Counted from the stretch's first letter, positions 39,333 through 46,472 are shown. The stretch is DNA of 64,000 nt from Escherichia coli (GCF_022846255.1 NZ_AP025682.1); one strand, 5' to 3'. Numbers and translations are program-made. Notes: generated from the sequence alone by a model not told the origin.

Positions 39333-40217
39333 GGGATGAAGATGAGATGATTCGCAGGCCTGGGTAATAGTTGGAAAACAACGTCCGTTCCTGGCACAGA
39401 GCAGACCATCGGACTAAACTGAAGGTCCTCTCTGTGCGAGAAACGGAAGTTAGCAATTGTGATACAGACGTGGGGCATTACTCGCTTTACAGTGTGTTAA
39501 TCAATTGGAAACAGGTCAGAATTTATTGGGTGGAATGACACCTTTAAACTTCTTGCGCATCGCAAGGAATATCTCCACCAGACGGTAAGACAGTAGATTG
39601 CGCCACAAGTCCTCAGAATGCCCTTTGCTGGGTTAACCACACGTCGTAATCATCCTTCCAGTGCAGCGGATCAAGATCCGTAATGCTCATAGTCACGCGA
39701 TTTCAAATACAAGCCCAGTGGTGTTATCCGTGAGCTGGACAGTGCTTCCGGCAACATGACTGAGACAGACAAAAAATCAGTTAGTACAGCATTGACTCAG
39801 GTTGAGCAGGAGTTAAAACAAACTGGGCTGGAGCAGTAGAAGCCTGCAGTGAATTCCCTGAATCAGGCGATTAAGTTGGCTTAAGAGTCCGTGTATGCCA
39901 TGTGCCGCGAGATGTCGTGCTATACGTGAAAGTCAGCGATATATATCGTTTTGAAGATGATTTAGGTTACGGGAGTGTCTCTGGGTGATGTATTACTTCA
40001 TCGACATCGGCTACGCACGGGTTGCCGCGATGCAGCGGATGGAAGCTGTCTGGGAAAAGAAAGCTCCGCTTGCTAATATTAGTACATCCGATGAAAAATC
40101 GTGTGTGAAAGTTGCAGATTCGTAATATACTAATGAAGAATGGAGATGTATTTTATATAATAAAAACATCTAAGTAGAGCTTTTTATTTTAAATCCTTCA
40201 TTATTACTGGAGATTTT

Positions 40218-41996
40218 ATGGGTTTTTATAATGACGCACTGAGTAAAATATATAGTGAAGATGATGATTTCCTAATTATAGGATTAACAGGGAGGACGGG
40301 GTCAGGCTGTTCAACAGTTTCTAATATACTGTCATCAGAATCAAGTGAGATAAAGCATTCTCTATTTAACGGTGATTACCCTAAGTCGAATGAAGAAAGA
40401 AAAGAGCGGGTTCTATTTAAATATTTTTCCGTGTCATGGGTTCCATTTATAAAGATACAAGCAAGTTCCATACTGACATTGTGTTTATCAAAGGACTTTG
40501 ATGGTAAGCTGAATAAATTTATTCGGGAAGTGACGGAGTTAGGTAATGACCAAAGAATCCTAGAGTCAACAGTTAATGATCTTGAATCTATACTAAAAGA
40601 AATTAAAGCTAAAGATGAAAGCTCTGATCATGATATAGATGATAAGATAAAATTCATAAATGAATATCTAATAAAAGCGAATACACAAATTAAATCCATA
40701 TTTAAGAACAAGGCTGACTATATAAAACTATATCAAGCTATAGGTAATAATTATAGATCTAGTGGGATGTACCATGACAGTTCATTTAGTGATGATTTCC
40801 ATGGTTTTTTTCTTCCTAAAAAAATAAATGATATAATTCAAAGATTAAGAACCTTAGCAAAAGAAAAGAACACAAAAACTGGAGAAAAGAAACCTATTTA
40901 TATAGTTATTGATGCTATAAGAAATCCGTTCGAAGCAACATACTTCCAAGATAGATACTCATCATTTTATTTAATGGCTGTTTCTACAGAAGAGCATTAC
41001 AGGCATCAAAGGCTTAGAGAACAAGGTTTAACTGATGCTGAGATAAAAGATATTGATGCAAAAGAATACCGTAAATCATCTTTGGATGAGAAGTCATCAT
41101 ATATATATCAGAATATACAGTCTTGTTTAGAAATATCAGACATCTATGTTGAGAATCCGGAAGAGGAAAATGTTGTTTGTCGGTACTCAGGATTGGCTAA
41201 TCAATTAATTAAATTCACTTCATTAATGAAGCGTCCCGGTATAATAACTCCATCAAATGTTGAACGTTGCATGCAGATAGCATATACAGCTAAGTTGAAC
41301 TCTGGTTGTATATCCAGGCAGGTAGGCGCTGCAGTATCTGATAGTTCATTTTCAATTAAGTCTATTGGTTGGAATGATGTACCAAGTGGTCAAGTTCCTT
41401 GCTCTTTAAGGGATAGGTTTGATTTGTCTGAGGGGATTGATGATATTGCTTACTCTGAATTCGAAAAGAACGAAAATAGTTTCATTCGAAAAATAGATAG
41501 CACTAAGATTATTTTTTTAGATGTTAAAAATAAAGGAATGAGAGCTCCATTTTGTTTTAAAACAGAATGGAATAATATCCTTGATGATAAATACAAAGAA
41601 GATCTACGGGTCGAGCATAAGTTAAATGATGATGAGTTTGCTATTATTGACAAAATAAAGTCTAACGCTAATCAAGTTTTTACAAGATCACTTCATGCTG
41701 AAGAGAATGCTTTCTTACAAATATCTAAGTATGGTGGCGTTGGTATACAGAATGGTTTTTTGTTCACAACAGCAAGCCCTTGTGAATTATGTTCTAAAAA
41801 AGCGTATCAATTAGGGATCAAACAAATATATTACATAGATCCATACCCTGGTATAGCAATGAGGAATATTTTAAACGCAGGGAGCAATAAACCATTGCTT
41901 AAGCTTTTCAATGGTGCAATAGGTAAGGCATTCCATAATTTTTACACGCCAAGAATGGCTTATAAAGATGAGCTTTCAGCAAGATCTAGGGGGTGA
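40218..41996 (+). CDS. Two-domain P-loop NTPase / dCMP-cytidine deaminase protein (AvcD / kinase-Dcd-like anti-phage candidate)
   Basis: 592-aa ORF with GGAG Shine-Dalgarno. N-terminus has Walker-A-like GLTGRTGSGCST. C-terminus has HAEENA (about 41694) and PCELC (about 41778) zinc-binding deaminase motifs. Strongly AT-rich, with about 0.8 kb non-coding on each side. Confidence 0.7.
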   Translation: MGFYNDALSKIYSEDDDFLIIGLTGRTGSGCSTVSNILSSESSEIKHSLFNGDYPKSNEERKERVLFKYFSVSWVPFIKIQASSILTLCLSKDFDGKLNKFIREVTELGNDQRILESTVNDLESILKEIKAKDESSDHDIDDKIKFINEYLIKANTQIKSIFKNKADYIKLYQAIGNNYRSSGMYHDSSFSDDFHGFFLPKKINDIIQRLRTLAKEKNTKTGEKKPIYIVIDAIRNPFEATYFQDRYSSFYLMAVSTEEHYRHQRLREQGLTDAEIKDIDAKEYRKSSLDEKSSYIYQNIQSCLEISDIYVENPEEENVVCRYSGLANQLIKFTSLMKRPGIITPSNVERCMQIAYTAKLNSGCISRQVGAAVSDSSFSIKSIGWNDVPSGQVPCSLRDRFDLSEGIDDIAYSEFEKNENSFIRKIDSTKIIFLDVKNKGMRAPFCFKTEWNNILDDKYKEDLRVEHKLNDDEFAIIDKIKSNANQVFTRSLHAEENAFLQISKYGGVGIQNGFLFTTASPCELCSKKAYQLGIKQIYYIDPYPGIAMRNILNAGSNKPLLKLFNGAIGKAFHNFYTPRMAYKDELSARSRG

Positions 41997-42797
41997 AAAT
42001 ATTGATACAGGTAAAGGCAACGAACCAGAAATGCTCGAGACTATTCTGGCTAAGTCTGCCGGGCGATAAGCACGAGTGCATATGCTGTTCCAAAAGTCTT
42101 CTATTCAATAAATTACGAAGTGCTAACTAACTGACCATGTACAATAAGAACAAATCGCCTTGAATTGCTCTTGATTGAATGGTGAAGAATTATGAGGGTG
42201 ATAGTCCTTACCACCCTCAATTAAAATTAAAGGTATTTACGTGAGAAATTTTTCTTAACCACACTACTAATAAAACTATTTAGTCCATGCCCATCCTGGG
42301 CTAGCGCTTTCATCTTAGAGACCGTTGAAGCACCCAGTTTTGTAGAATCGTAACGTATTTCCATCCATCTTTAAACTGTACTGTGATAACATCGGGAGTA
42401 ATCTCATAAAACACTATTCCCGAATTACCGCCTTAATTAGCATAAGTTGGCATTTTTAATTCTTATTAAATTATTGCAGCAAGTCGCTGCACTCTAGTCA
42501 TATGACCCCATGCTAAACCTAATTGTTGAGCTAAGTCATAATTTCGATTATTTGATGAACGTAAGTTATTTGACAGGCAGAATTAACCATACACAGTAAT
42601 ATCCGTTTCTGGCACATAGCAGTCCTATAGATAGTGGCATACAGTCATAGATGGTCGATTGGAGGAGGTGCAAATTCTCCCATACAAAAAATACGTAAAA
42701 TCAATAACAGCTGGAAATTATTTAATAATCAAATTATCGGAAGTTCACCAGCCAGCCGCAGTATTCTGCCACGACAAGTTGCTGCGGCTTTTTATGT

Positions 42798-43085
42798 TTA
42801 ACGGATAAACAGCCAGACCAGCAGACACGCCACCGCGGGCACCGCAAAATCCATCAGACTTGCCACATCCCATGCACGAGGATCAAAACCGCCCCACCAC
42901 GGCATGTTAATCCGCTTGCCATGCCCGAACATTTCAATCCAGCGATATTCTGCCTGGGTGTGTTCACGCGCAATGAAGAACGTACAACCGGCTATCGCCC
43001 CGTAAGCCCAGTTTCCGGTAAAAAGACCAATCAGTAGCTGCGCAGCCACAGCACAAAGTGCATGAAGGAAAGGTGTTATATCCAT
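42798..43085 (-). CDS. Small hydrophobic hypothetical protein (prophage tail-fibre-distal region)
   Basis: Start placed at the ATG preceded by AAAGGAGGA (MDITPFLHAL...). Two predicted hydrophobic segments. Function unknown. Confidence 0.5.
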   Translation of the reverse strand: MDITPFLHALCAVAAQLLIGLFTGNWAYGAIAGCTFFIAREHTQAEYRWIEMFGHGKRINMPWWGGFDPRAWDVASLMDFAVPAVACLLVWLFIR

Positions 43086-43098
43086 TACTCCTCCTTTA

Positions 43099-43800
43099 TC
43101 AGATATCACTTCGGGAAGTTGATAACAACTTTAATTCTGACTCAAGTTCATCAACTCTTTCAGTCAGTTTCTGGATATGGTGAATCAGTGGAACAACCAG
43201 ACGTTCGTACATTACACCTTCGACAACAAGGCCATTGCTGGAAATAGCTTCAGGAGCATCATCTTCGTTAGCTGGTCGCCAGTGTACAAACTGAGGAGCA
43301 ATTTCTCCCACTTCCTCGGCAATCAATCCGTAGAATCCCCAGTCACTCCTGTCATTTTCGCATTGCGACCTGTACCACACAGGGCGCATCCTGAAAATGA
43401 GATCGGCGTGCTCTGAATCTATTGTCTCTACTGAATGTTTATAGCGAATAGACGATGTTGACCGCAGTACAGACGAAATTGCAGGGTCAGGATTAAGATA
43501 AAGATTTGCCGCCGCTGTAGTCGTGCCCAATTCCCATAAATAAAACGCTTCACGGCCAGTCAGCGGGTAAAAATCTCCACCATAACGACCGCTTTCCAGA
43601 TCGTTCACTTCCAGTTTGTTTTTCAGCTTATTATCAACTTCAGTTTTTGTGTATCTGGTGCTGATATCCTGCTTTGCACTGGTCATATCAGTCTGAAGCG
43701 TTGATACTTTTCCGTTAATTGAGGAAATATCTTCCTTAGTTTTACTGACATCTCCCTTTAGCGTGGTGATATCTCCTGGAATTACTGTCGATGTAGCCAT
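43099..43800 (-). CDS. Tail-fibre-associated protein with C-terminal intramolecular-chaperone-like domain
   Basis: 233-aa ORF with coiled-coil-like N-terminal half and C-terminal segment (GLIAEEVGEIAPQFV...ERLVVPLIHHIQKL) resembling the Peptidase_S74 / tail-fibre chaperone domain. Downstream of stf. Confidence 0.55.
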   Translation of the reverse strand: MATSTVIPGDITTLKGDVSKTKEDISSINGKVSTLQTDMTSAKQDISTRYTKTEVDNKLKNKLEVNDLESGRYGGDFYPLTGREAFYLWELGTTTAAANLYLNPDPAISSVLRSTSSIRYKHSVETIDSEHADLIFRMRPVWYRSQCENDRSDWGFYGLIAEEVGEIAPQFVHWRPANEDDAPEAISSNGLVVEGVMYERLVVPLIHHIQKLTERVDELESELKLLSTSRSDI

Positions 43801-43809
43801 TTGTCTCCC

Positions 43810-44091
43810 TCACATCCAGCCACGAAGTTGATGCTCAACAACAACCGCATATTTATCGAATATTGACGATTTTTTTGCATCATTAATGATGCGCACGTTT
43901 ACAAAATATCCGTCTTCCTTAACACATACCGGTTCGCCATCTTCAGTCAGTTCTCCGGTTTCTTTGTACACGTTACCTATCACGTCAATAAGAATATTAT
44001 CCTGCATCGACTCGTCATCATAATAGCCAGTGCTCTCCATAAAGGCCGAAAAGTCGGCCCTGTCTGCAAATTTGAGTGTTAAATCTTTCAT
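43810..44091 (-). CDS. Hypothetical 93-aa acidic protein
   Basis: ORF tightly packed between stf and the next gene. No recognisable motif. Confidence 0.45.
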   Translation of the reverse strand: MKDLTLKFADRADFSAFMESTGYYDDESMQDNILIDVIGNVYKETGELTEDGEPVCVKEDGYFVNVRIINDAKKSSIFDKYAVVVEHQLRGWM

Positions 44092-46472
44092 TAGATTGAC
44101 TCCCCCACCTGAGCATCAGTCAATGCCTTGTGCCATATTCTGAAATTCCTGACATGACCAAATAAATGACGTAACCCGGCAGTAGTCTGGCCTCCAATAC
44201 GGATAATTGCGGTGTTCTGAATACAGGACCATGTGGTTTTTGTTTCGCTGGATATACGCCCGTTACTTACTGAGCACGTAGACTGATCTGACTTTACACG
44301 CATCCCCATAACCATTTTTTCAAGCGATGCGTTTTCGTTTACCCGTCTGTTAGCTCCTCCAATATCGCAATAAGGAAATCCGTCGTAATCTGTTGAACGA
44401 CCGAAGCCAAGAATAATAGCCGCTCCGGTTTGATGACCGCCGGTGTCAAAAACACGCGGAGCTGCATTTGGCGTTTTATACCAGTTCTTATGTACCTCAC
44501 AAAGAACCGTAAAAGGAAGATTATAAAGATTATTCTTAATGGGAACTGTAACTATATCGCTTGCGCGGGTCGCCGCCGTCGTTCCTGATATAATAAAAGA
44601 TGATACACAAGGCCCATTTTCTACTTGTGGGGTGGCCAGATAAATATAGTCACCAGATACGGTTGCCCCGCCCTGCTTAGGAGAATACTGTATCTGAGAA
44701 CCTATTTTTAACTCCCCATCAATTGCCTGAATTGTTGCCTCTGCAAAAATCCATCCGGTAGCTTCGTCCTTTCTGACTCTCGCAGTAATCCTTGAGGCAG
44801 CACCGCCTGTCATATTAATTTCAAGCGTTTGTGTATCAATATACGCATCACCAAGAAAAGTTGTTGCGCTACCGTCATATTTATCAAACCGGATACGCAA
44901 CCTTACCTGCAGTTCTGTTTTAAAACGACATGAGGTTGTCACGTGTTTATTATCGCCTGAGACATCAACTGACTTTGTTGCAGCAATTGATGCCATATTA
45001 ATGGCTGAGGTTTGCCCAATCAGAGAATCGTTGCAGACAAACTTTCCATAGGTAAAACCAAAACTATCCGTCCCTGTTTCGGGCACATCCATATTTGACG
45101 ATCGCCCCCAACTGGCAGGGTTTTCCGAATTGAGCATGTAGTTTGTTCTTTGCCCCTCAATAAGCAGGCCATCACGTTCAAACCGTGGCTCGTCAATGGC
45201 AGCCTCTGTCAGCACACCAGATTTATTAATGTAAGTTGCTTTTGATGCGCGTTTAAACTTTACAACCTTATCGCCAGGCATCGTTATTTCATCATCACCA
45301 ATAACAATCTTTTTATATGACGGCGAAAAGCCCGTAATCATATCCAGTGAATCGTTAAACGGTATCCACACATCGGGAAGCGGCTGCAATACTTGTTTAT
45401 ACGGCTCCGCAGCCTGGCTTGCATACTCTCTGGCTGCGTCTTCACTTGCTTTTGCAGCCGTCTGGCTTGCAGCGGATGCTTTCGCCGAGTTAGCCGCCGC
45501 AGTCTCGCTCGCCTTTGCGTTGGTTTCACTGGTTTTTGCAGCTTTTTGACTGTTGGCTGATGCAGTGGCAGAAGCAGCCGCCGCGCTTGCAGAGCCAGCT
45601 GCAGCACTCTCGCTTTCGGCTGCTGCATCCTGACTGCTTTTCGCCGCAGTTTCACTGGCTTTGGCATTCGTTTCGCTGGTTTTCGCTGCCGTCTGGCTGG
45701 ACTTTGCGTTGGTTTCGCTGGTTTTTGCAGCTTTTTGACTGTTGGCTGATGCAGTGGCAGAAGAAGCCGCCGCACTTGCAGAACCAGCTGCAGCACTCTC
45801 GCTTTCGGCTGCTGCATCCTGACTGCTTTTCGCCGCAGTTTCACTGGCTTTGGCATTCGTTTCGCTGGTTTTCGCTGCCGTCTGGCTGGACTTTGCGTTG
45901 GTTTCGCTCGTCTTTGCGGCTGTCTCGCTGTTTTTCGCATTGGTTTCTGATTTTTTGGCTGCTGTCGCGGAGTTTGCCGATGCAGTCTGTGAGGTCGCTG
46001 CCGCCTGTGCGCTGTTAGCTGCATTCGTTTCTGAGGTTTTCGCCGCGTTCTTCGATGATGCCGCTGCAGTTTCGGATTTCTTTGCCGCCGCTGCGCTCTG
46101 AGAGGCGGCTTCGGCGTTGCGTGCCGCTTCTTCCACCATTTCCTGAAAACGGCGCAATGCCTCCGGCATGACATCATCTTCCGTCATGGCACCGAGAAAA
46201 TCATTCAGCGTCCCCGGACTGGAACCTTCATAGACGGTAATGGTCCCAACATGTGATGGCTGAGAACCCTCAATCCACAGGATGACGCTGTACTGACCAT
46301 ACTCAACGTCCATACTGTAACGCCCGGCTTCATCAGGATTTTCAGAGGTCACCGTGTTCACCAATACCGTGGTGCTGTTACGCTTTGCCTTCAGTTGAAT
46401 AGTGCAGTTCTGTATTGGTTTTCCCGCACCATCTTTCAGCACACCTGAGATTTTTACTGCTGCCATATCCAC
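44091..46472 (-). CDS. stf: Lambda-like side tail fibre protein Stf
   Basis: N-terminus MAAVKISGVLKDGAGKPIQNCTIQLKAKRNSTTVLVNTVTSENPDEAGRYSMDVEYGQYSV matches lambda Stf. Long Ala/Ser/Thr/Lys-rich repeat region and a divergent C-terminal domain. Confidence 0.9.
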   Translation of the reverse strand: MDMAAVKISGVLKDGAGKPIQNCTIQLKAKRNSTTVLVNTVTSENPDEAGRYSMDVEYGQYSVILWIEGSQPSHVGTITVYEGSSPGTLNDFLGAMTEDDVMPEALRRFQEMVEEAARNAEAASQSAAAAKKSETAAASSKNAAKTSETNAANSAQAAATSQTASANSATAAKKSETNAKNSETAAKTSETNAKSSQTAAKTSETNAKASETAAKSSQDAAAESESAAAGSASAAASSATASANSQKAAKTSETNAKSSQTAAKTSETNAKASETAAKSSQDAAAESESAAAGSASAAAASATASANSQKAAKTSETNAKASETAAANSAKASAASQTAAKASEDAAREYASQAAEPYKQVLQPLPDVWIPFNDSLDMITGFSPSYKKIVIGDDEITMPGDKVVKFKRASKATYINKSGVLTEAAIDEPRFERDGLLIEGQRTNYMLNSENPASWGRSSNMDVPETGTDSFGFTYGKFVCNDSLIGQTSAINMASIAATKSVDVSGDNKHVTTSCRFKTELQVRLRIRFDKYDGSATTFLGDAYIDTQTLEINMTGGAASRITARVRKDEATGWIFAEATIQAIDGELKIGSQIQYSPKQGGATVSGDYIYLATPQVENGPCVSSFIISGTTAATRASDIVTVPIKNNLYNLPFTVLCEVHKNWYKTPNAAPRVFDTGGHQTGAAIILGFGRSTDYDGFPYCDIGGANRRVNENASLEKMVMGMRVKSDQSTCSVSNGRISSETKTTWSCIQNTAIIRIGGQTTAGLRHLFGHVRNFRIWHKALTDAQVGESI
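45530..45890. repeat. Tandem direct repeat (about 180 bp x 2) inside stf
   Basis: Near-identical 180-nt units starting about 45538 and 45718, encoding a repeated 60-aa Ala/Ser/Thr/Lys-rich block. Confidence 0.75.

Follow-up and report, generated by a model that had tools for sequence, protein, structure and literature searches.

The AvcID system (DcdV-DifV) is carried by VSP-1 of V. cholerae, and homologues have been tested from V. parahaemolyticus, P. mirabilis and E. coli H10407. As described in the AvcID preprint, a deaminase-inhibiting RNA is encoded directly 5' of the deaminase gene, on the same strand, and is co-transcribed with it; 152-174 nt of the RNA are needed, and there is no sequence similarity between species. 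The AvcI transcript of V. parahaemolyticus is about 280 nt long. An AvcI-type RNA is further characterised by a promoter that precedes it, by an abundance far above that of the mRNA, by post-translational inhibition of the deaminase to which it binds, and by its lability once transcription ceases. Phage cargo has been described for the Z/fun locus of P2-like phages, where it is flanked by inverted repeats (Nilsson, Karlsson and Haggard-Ljungquist 2004, as summarised in PMC8987985), and cos-proximal recombination was put forward as a speculation in the 2021 preprint of the P2/P4 hotspot study. MobX is an accessory mobilization protein of small MobA/MobL (MOBQ-type) plasmids.

The locus described here is a gap at positions 39333-40217 of a stretch of 64,000 nt of Escherichia coli DNA (GCF_022846255.1, NZ_AP025682.1; the window), between a LysR regulator gene and a gene for a two-domain deaminase. 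The original prediction saw in it an AT-rich non-coding region with either an AvcI-like small RNA antitoxin or decayed gene remnants. The gap is read here, with a probability of roughly three in four, as a recombination joint together with captured junk and not as one functional element. As a gap it is ordinary and needs no special function; what makes it instructive is that two exchangeable defence/cargo cassettes can be seen to meet there.

Location and composition of the gap

The following features surround the gap in the window.

33547-34239: torR
34212-35240: torT
35368-35566: prophage-end DNA, 92% identical to the end of the lambdoid prophage adjoining ybhB/bio in O104:H4
35767-39332: genes for an MFS transporter, an alpha/beta hydrolase and a LysR regulator
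40218-41996, plus strand: intact gene for a two-domain anti-phage dCTP/dCMP deaminase (AvcD/DCD type, 592 aa) of a divergent subfamily
from 43099 rightwards, minus strand: lambdoid tail-fibre genes

A lambdoid prophage lies beside torT, and the stretch from 35.3 to 42.8 kb makes up its cargo ("b") region, as read from the prophage end on the left of this stretch and the tail-fibre genes on the right. Within it, the MFS, hydrolase and LysR genes are followed by the gap and then by the deaminase gene. torT passes directly into prophage-end DNA (35241-35766) and no torS was seen on that side, so that the prophage seems to sit in the torS-torT interval, its other end lying outside the window. This interval we take to be the attachment region of HK022. 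The tail-fibre gene at 44091-46472 (minus strand) contains a long, internally repeated segment rich in Ala, Ser, Thr and Lys (~45400-46200), in which the AT skew is extreme (down to -0.60) and which therefore produces long spurious ORFs on both strands.

The GC content of the gap is 44.3%, compared with 52.1% for the window and 33% for the deaminase gene. The AT-richness ascribed to it is real for 40114-40217 (24% GC) or 40089-40217 (26% GC), but not for the first ~780 nt (46-53% GC). As stated in the original prediction, no ORF of 60 aa or more is present, the longest being one of 55 aa (39371-39538, plus strand). The gap consists of five pieces.

39333-39379, plus strand: 3' tail of the LysR cassette, 47 nt, kept in H6/L003 (strain CFIAFB20120266)
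39380-39451, no strand assigned: 72-nt imperfect palindrome, the joint of two cargo cassettes, with an L-arm at 39384-39406 (TCCGTTCCTGGCACAGAGCAGAC), an 18-nt loop and an inverted arm at 39425-39447
39516-39772, minus strand: remnant of a small gene without assigned function, in three frames with two frameshifts (six-frame translation)
39723-40113, plus strand: pseudogene of the plasmid mobilization protein MobX, residues 46-176 of 194
40114-40217, plus strand: AT-rich leader of the deaminase gene, 104 nt, 24% GC; the part travelling with the gene starts at 40089

The first of these pieces is missing from five E. coli genomes that have the deaminase block. The suspicion of decayed genes was well founded, as two pseudogene fragments make up about 650 of the 885 nt. 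The larger of them, the MobX pseudogene, was absent from the original prediction, as was the palindrome.

The palindrome and the boundary motif

The palindrome is built from two copies of a boundary motif, a dyad of about 24 nt (GTCCGCTC-CTGGCACA-GAGCGGAC) with 8-bp arms and an 8-nt spacer, which occurs in L and R spacer variants. Two further copies delimit the cargo region of the window.

35691-35713, plus strand: R-type half-site (GTCTGCTATGAGCGAGGAGTGAT; variant GTCTGCTATGAGCGAGGAG..), left border of the MFS-hydrolase-LysR cassette (fuzzy search of the window and L003)
42602-42624: degenerate L-type motif, right border of the deaminase cassette (42597-42797, plus strand)

Two cassettes thus stand in tandem: R (35691), the MFS, hydrolase and LysR genes, and L (39384); then the inverted arm (39425), the deaminase block, and L (42602). 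Where they meet, the L-arm of the first cassette lies directly against the inverted arm of the second, and the two arms make up the palindrome at 39380-39451. Its arms are 31 nt long and 81% complementary; the core of the left arm, TCCGYTCCTGGCACAGAGCRGAC, is in turn an inverted repeat, with arms of 8 bp and a spacer of 8 nt. The predicted fold has a free energy of -39.3 kcal/mol (z = -5.8), and none of 200 shuffled sequences was as stable. No tRNA was found, which speaks against its being a tRNA or att site.

Homology to other genomes breaks at these sites. The MFS-hydrolase-LysR block of the window (35691-39406) is 99% identical to L003:4001-7712 and has the same R and L ends, the homology to this P2-borne cassette (H6/L003:4001) beginning exactly at the R site at 35691 and ending inside the L-arm. 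The L003 copy (E. coli O170:H18) lies in a P2-like prophage, between tail-sheath and tail-fibre-assembly genes. The same cassette is therefore carried by a lambdoid and a P2-like prophage, and moves between unrelated phage backbones. On the other side, homology with L001, L002 and L072 starts inside the L-arm and homology with L021 starts in the right arm. The segment 39381-40217 is present in only 5 of 5426 complete E. coli genomes and in one viral contig; all carriers have the same left breakpoint inside the palindrome and different left neighbours. Between the window, L001 and L002, GTCCGYTYY is variable and identity begins at TGGCACAGAGC; between the window and the P2-borne copy, identity extends up to TGGCACAGAGC and is lost after it. 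Breakpoints at TGGCACAGAGC suggest that exchange took place in the centre of the L-arm. The arms of the palindrome would accordingly be cassette-exchange sites with the crossover in the central TGGCACAGAGC of the L-arm, and the exchange could be brought about by a site-specific recombinase or by short-homology phage recombination.

The motif is not confined to the window. The scan of viral contigs for its core yielded 50 loci, and a fuzzy search over viral and E. coli loci gave 104 matches, compared with none in shuffled sequences (chance matches expected: 0). It is mostly intergenic, with 9 of 88 copies inside ORFs of at least 120 aa as against 79% of random positions, and the distance from one element to the next is 0.8-4 kb. 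One grammar is common to about 45 loci of prophages or viruses: a single cassette is written R...L and an array R...L R...L; in arrays, L and R stand 42 nt apart and form palindromes of 64-74 nt. The cassettes bounded in this way carry PD-T4-3, AbiV, retron Eco8 or the present deaminase, with genes in either direction.

Arrays in P2-like prophages, located just past the tail-fibre genes and made of two to four cassettes (0.8-3 kb each) with palindromes of 64-74 nt between them, were seen in L054 (7966-10659), L030 (six arm matches between 2245 and 5309), L024, L035, L044 and L045, with up to four cassettes in L030 and L054. Their cargo includes PD-T4-3, AbiV, a glyoxalase/bleomycin-resistance-like protein and small two-gene modules. 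Partial or short genes for tyrosine recombinases/integrases were also observed in three E. coli loci, 1.3-2.2 kb to the left of the palindrome (L001:4445-4738, L002:4072-4275, L008:1857-2459).

Tentatively, and with less than even probability, the motif might serve as core site for a system dedicated to site-specific exchange. Such a system would build integron-like arrays of defence cassettes in P2-like and lambdoid prophages, and the deaminase block (39421-42626) would be one such mobile cassette.

The palindrome might instead act mainly at the RNA level, as a REP-like 3' stabiliser, terminator or insulator of the LysR-cassette transcript, its position at a border being a by-product. The very stable hairpin 47 nt past the LysR stop codon, the largely intergenic position of the motifs and one compensatory change between the window copy and L007 would agree with such a role. 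However, the plus strand has no U-run after the palindrome, lone arms occur at outer borders (35691, 42602 and the P2-type loci), the cassette genes point either way, and the homology breakpoints fall inside the arms. Moreover, the sequence itself is conserved, including the positions of the mismatches, and not the pairing alone: in 18 aligned palindromes the mismatches are at fixed positions and covariation is slight (2 of 16 pairs), a pattern more in keeping with a sequence-specific DNA site than with a simple RNA hairpin. A primarily RNA-level function is therefore considered unlikely, and the palindrome continues to be treated as a joint between cassettes.

Several other identities were considered for the palindrome and rejected. 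As an intrinsic terminator it fails because the minus-strand hairpin has a U-run only beside the LysR cassette, and none in L001, L002 or lambda. It ends in YAAC...GTT like an integron attC site, but inspection of the 18 aligned palindromes showed that the flanks miss the RYYYAAC/GTTRRRY consensus. Nor is it a relic of the C-terminus of a DNA invertase (pin/gin): in phi458 the invertase fragment lies beside the motif, on the opposite strand, and not over it, and one relic cannot explain arrays.

The captured remnants

The frameshifted small gene that had been placed on the minus strand near 39560-39700 is present, and the reading MSITDLDPLHWKDDYDVWLTQQRAF does continue in a second frame (..DLWRNLLSYRLVEIFLAMRKKFKGVIPPNKF*), but its extent was underestimated, as a third frame lies upstream and carries the remnant to 39772. 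No PHROG or NCBIfam family was matched. Its uninterrupted counterpart is a 79-aa ORF (P0121; 87% identical) on contig L021, which shares a block of 456 nt (39432-39887) with the window at 93% identity. The first ~12 codons of the remnant are antisense to the start of the MobX remnant, so that it is probably a truncated C-terminal piece. The L021 block (L021:4871-5329, 93% identical) runs from the right arm of the palindrome through the minus-strand ORF into the beginning of the MobX remnant; it sits between IS91-family (Y2 transposase) genes on an unrelated contig and has fewer disabling mutations. In this respect, a stop codon of the MobX remnant in the window reads CAG in L021.

The MobX remnant was recognized by tblastn (7e-44, 68-78% amino acid identity) and is 70-72% identical at the nucleotide level to mobX in more than 100 E. 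coli plasmids (blastn), in agreement with the annotation of L005 and L006. Its reading frame is interrupted by four in-frame stops and a single frameshift and has lost both termini, so that it is a pseudogene. Presumably, the deaminase gene once followed closely on mobX in a small mobilizable plasmid, and this flank was captured together with it. Among the plasmids of PLSDB, tblastn found none with an intact mobX followed by this deaminase, all matches being below 60% identity; the proposed plasmid origin is thus read from the pseudogene. In L009, the replicon with the closest relative of the gene (see below), just the last ~25 nt of mobX (..CDEKPCV*) are retained, which suggests that the link between the end of mobX and the deaminase is old and points to an origin downstream of mobX.

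The deaminase gene and its leader

The deaminase has the two domains of the AvcID partner, a P-loop kinase-like domain and a deoxycytidylate deaminase domain. It matches the PADLOC profile dCTPase (5e-127) and Pfam PF00383, dCMP_cyt_deam_1 (3.5e-11, residues 347-539). With NCBIfam NF041025 ("anti-phage dCTP deaminase") it scores 370.7 bits, under the cut-off of 400 bits, which accounts for the RefSeq label "hypothetical protein" in all five genomes; defence censuses built on that model would miss this subfamily. The E. coli proteins named dCTP deaminase are only ~38% identical to it. A PDB sequence search returned classical dCMP deaminases only and no AvcD-RNA complex, and the viral-contig scan for close relatives returned the same prophage only.

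The closest relative elsewhere (90% amino acid identity) is found on a Rep3 plasmid-like contig (L009), beside a restriction-modification system. On this contig of 9.2 kb, two DNA methylases and a BpuJI-like endonuclease adjoin the deaminase (L009:1-7354), and the replicon is small and consists almost wholly of defence genes. The alignment with L009 begins at 40089, 129 nt before the ATG, at 87% nucleotide identity. Only the last 104-129 nt of the gap therefore stay with the deaminase in another replicon. The homologues that are 71% (L010) and 59% (L016) identical share no sequence with the window upstream of the ATG; their upstream gaps measure 60 and 200 nt, and those of more distant homologues 45, 58, 113, 396, 428 and 508 nt. 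Homologues with gaps of 45-60 nt stand behind unrelated genes.

The leader is proposed to hold a weak sigma-70 promoter of the gene itself, a 5' UTR and a ribosome-binding site, with transcription starting at about 40138-40168. Our own promoter scan predicted a perfect -10 box (TATAAT, 40156-40161) with a weak -35 box (3/6 in the hexamer), and an alternative -10 box (TATACT) at 40126-40131; a Shine-Dalgarno sequence (GGAG) is at 40209-40212. The best -10 boxes would leave a UTR of 50-80 nt, that at 40156-40161 about 50 nt. This promoter is missed at the standard scan threshold of 9/12, at which no promoter site was returned anywhere in 39333-40217, and there is no terminator-like site in the same interval.

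An AvcI-like antitoxin RNA could be encoded on the plus strand in the 130-300 nt before the deaminase gene (the MobX tail and the leader), co-transcribed with the gene and keeping the enzyme inactive until a phage stops host transcription. In favour are the AvcD/DCD type of the deaminase and the example of the four AvcID systems tested, whose RNA is encoded directly 5' in the same orientation, frequently where a small ORF has been annotated; a 46-aa ORF (39985-40125) has the matching position and orientation. The scrap of mobX 3' end kept beside the gene in two different replicons would also suit such an RNA, and known AvcI RNAs share no sequence similarity, so that no sequence signature is to be expected. 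However, the 129 nt that travel with the gene fall short of the minimal AvcI and of the full transcript, homologues of 71% and ~50% identity have gaps of 45-113 nt behind unrelated genes, and the candidate DNA is demonstrably a decaying protein-coding gene. The fold z-scores of the last 129, 148 and 298 nt are unremarkable (-0.3, -0.9 and -1.0), and no fold is conserved in L009, the leader of which scores +1.4. The Rfam scan of 38000-44000 at a permissive threshold gave only chance matches of miRNA hairpins to the palindrome, no tandem repeats such as define ToxI-like type III antitoxins, where they are processed into pseudoknot units, occur in 39300-40217, and there is no promoter-like site upstream of 40100. 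A distant blastn search found no similarity between the gap and any other E. coli deaminase locus. The limit of linkage at 129 nt, the very short gaps of homologues and the null scans together argue against a separate RNA gene. The AvcI-like antitoxin that had been named as a possibility thus finds no backing in Rfam matches, repeats, leader fold, promoters at 9/12 or terminators, and it is regarded as improbable; the leader is preferably read as promoter, UTR and ribosome-binding site.

It is far less probable still that one of the short ORFs of the gap, the 46-aa ORF or that of 55 aa at 39371-39538, encodes a functional small protein partner of the deaminase. Both ORFs exist, but the former is the out-of-frame tail of the MobX pseudogene and is absent from L009, and the latter crosses the palindrome; PGAP annotates nothing within the gap in the five genomes, and neither ORF matched a family.

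The downstream gap and the right border

The gap on the other side of the deaminase gene (41997-42797) was correctly described as gene-free and AT-rich, with a GC content of 37.8% and no intact gene. It is likewise not one unit, and contains the following features to the left and right of the L-type motif.

42193-42219, minus strand: terminator-like hairpin, after the phrog_17428-like fragment
42227-42414, minus strand: frameshifted fragment of a phage gene; the repaired 60-aa translation corresponds to positions 81-138 of 768 of phrog_17428 (E = 2.8e-10)
to 42797: lambdoid backbone, 200 nt, homologous to lambda 24190-24354
42754-42789/42799, plus strand: hairpin with a U-run, facing the end of a convergent 103-aa phage gene

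The convergent gene matches phrog_1443. The segment 42597-42761 is 84% identical at the nucleotide level to the intergenic region of lambda between ea31 and ea47, and the homology begins at the motif at 42602-42624. The motif copy of lambda itself (L004:1495-1530) lies at about 24330-24360, and the GenBank record of lambda lists a misc_recomb feature at 24389-24390, ~35 nt from it.

Comparison with known systems

The locus resembles AvcID in its two-domain P-loop and dCMP/dCTP deaminase carried on a mobile element, and in the same-strand non-coding DNA just upstream with a small ORF-like stretch. It differs from AvcID in the low identity to the named dCTP deaminases and the sub-cut-off profile score, in that the upstream DNA is a MobX pseudogene, and in that the linked 129 nt are shorter than the minimal AvcI, with nothing to indicate a separate RNA gene. 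The mere presence of non-coding DNA beside a deaminase gene does not argue for an AvcI-type RNA, and the frequent position of this subfamily 45-60 nt behind an unrelated gene raises the question of whether the enzyme needs an RNA antitoxin at all.

Compared with the mobX genes of small MobA/MobL (MOBQ-type) plasmids, the remnant agrees in the order of its segments over residues 46-176, but it is truncated and interrupted, has no mobA beside it and lies inside a prophage. The b region of lambda has a single motif arm of its own between ea31 and ea47, whereas in the window this motif closes the deaminase cassette. The arrays are similar to those of integron attC sites in having short, mostly single-gene cassettes, often of defence genes, between imperfect palindromes of 64-74 nt with fixed mismatches; they are unlike them in having no RYYYAAC/GTTRRRY core sites, genes in both orientations and single arms at the outer borders, and no intI, attI or Pc was noticed.

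Like the cargo of the Z/fun locus of P2, as summarised for the 2004 report, the cargo described here is situated just past the tail-fibre genes, between inverted repeats in which the breakpoints fall. Unlike it, the backbone in the window is lambdoid (b region), two cassettes stand in tandem, and their arms meet as a 72-nt palindrome. The P2-type loci found here occupy the same Z/fun locus, and the motif of the window (GTCCGCTCCTGGCACAGAGCGGAC) accordingly appears to be the same element as the P2 repeats of 2004, a match made by location only; a literature string search for the motif sequence returned nothing relevant. Its occurrence in a lambdoid b region and the multi-cassette arrays may extend what the summary gives of that report. 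The motif brackets defence genes in the cargo hotspots of two unrelated types of temperate phage, and homology breaks inside it. The gap shows defence genes swapped as cassettes between prophages and, for the rapid turnover of prophage defence hotspots, the motif is a concrete candidate site.
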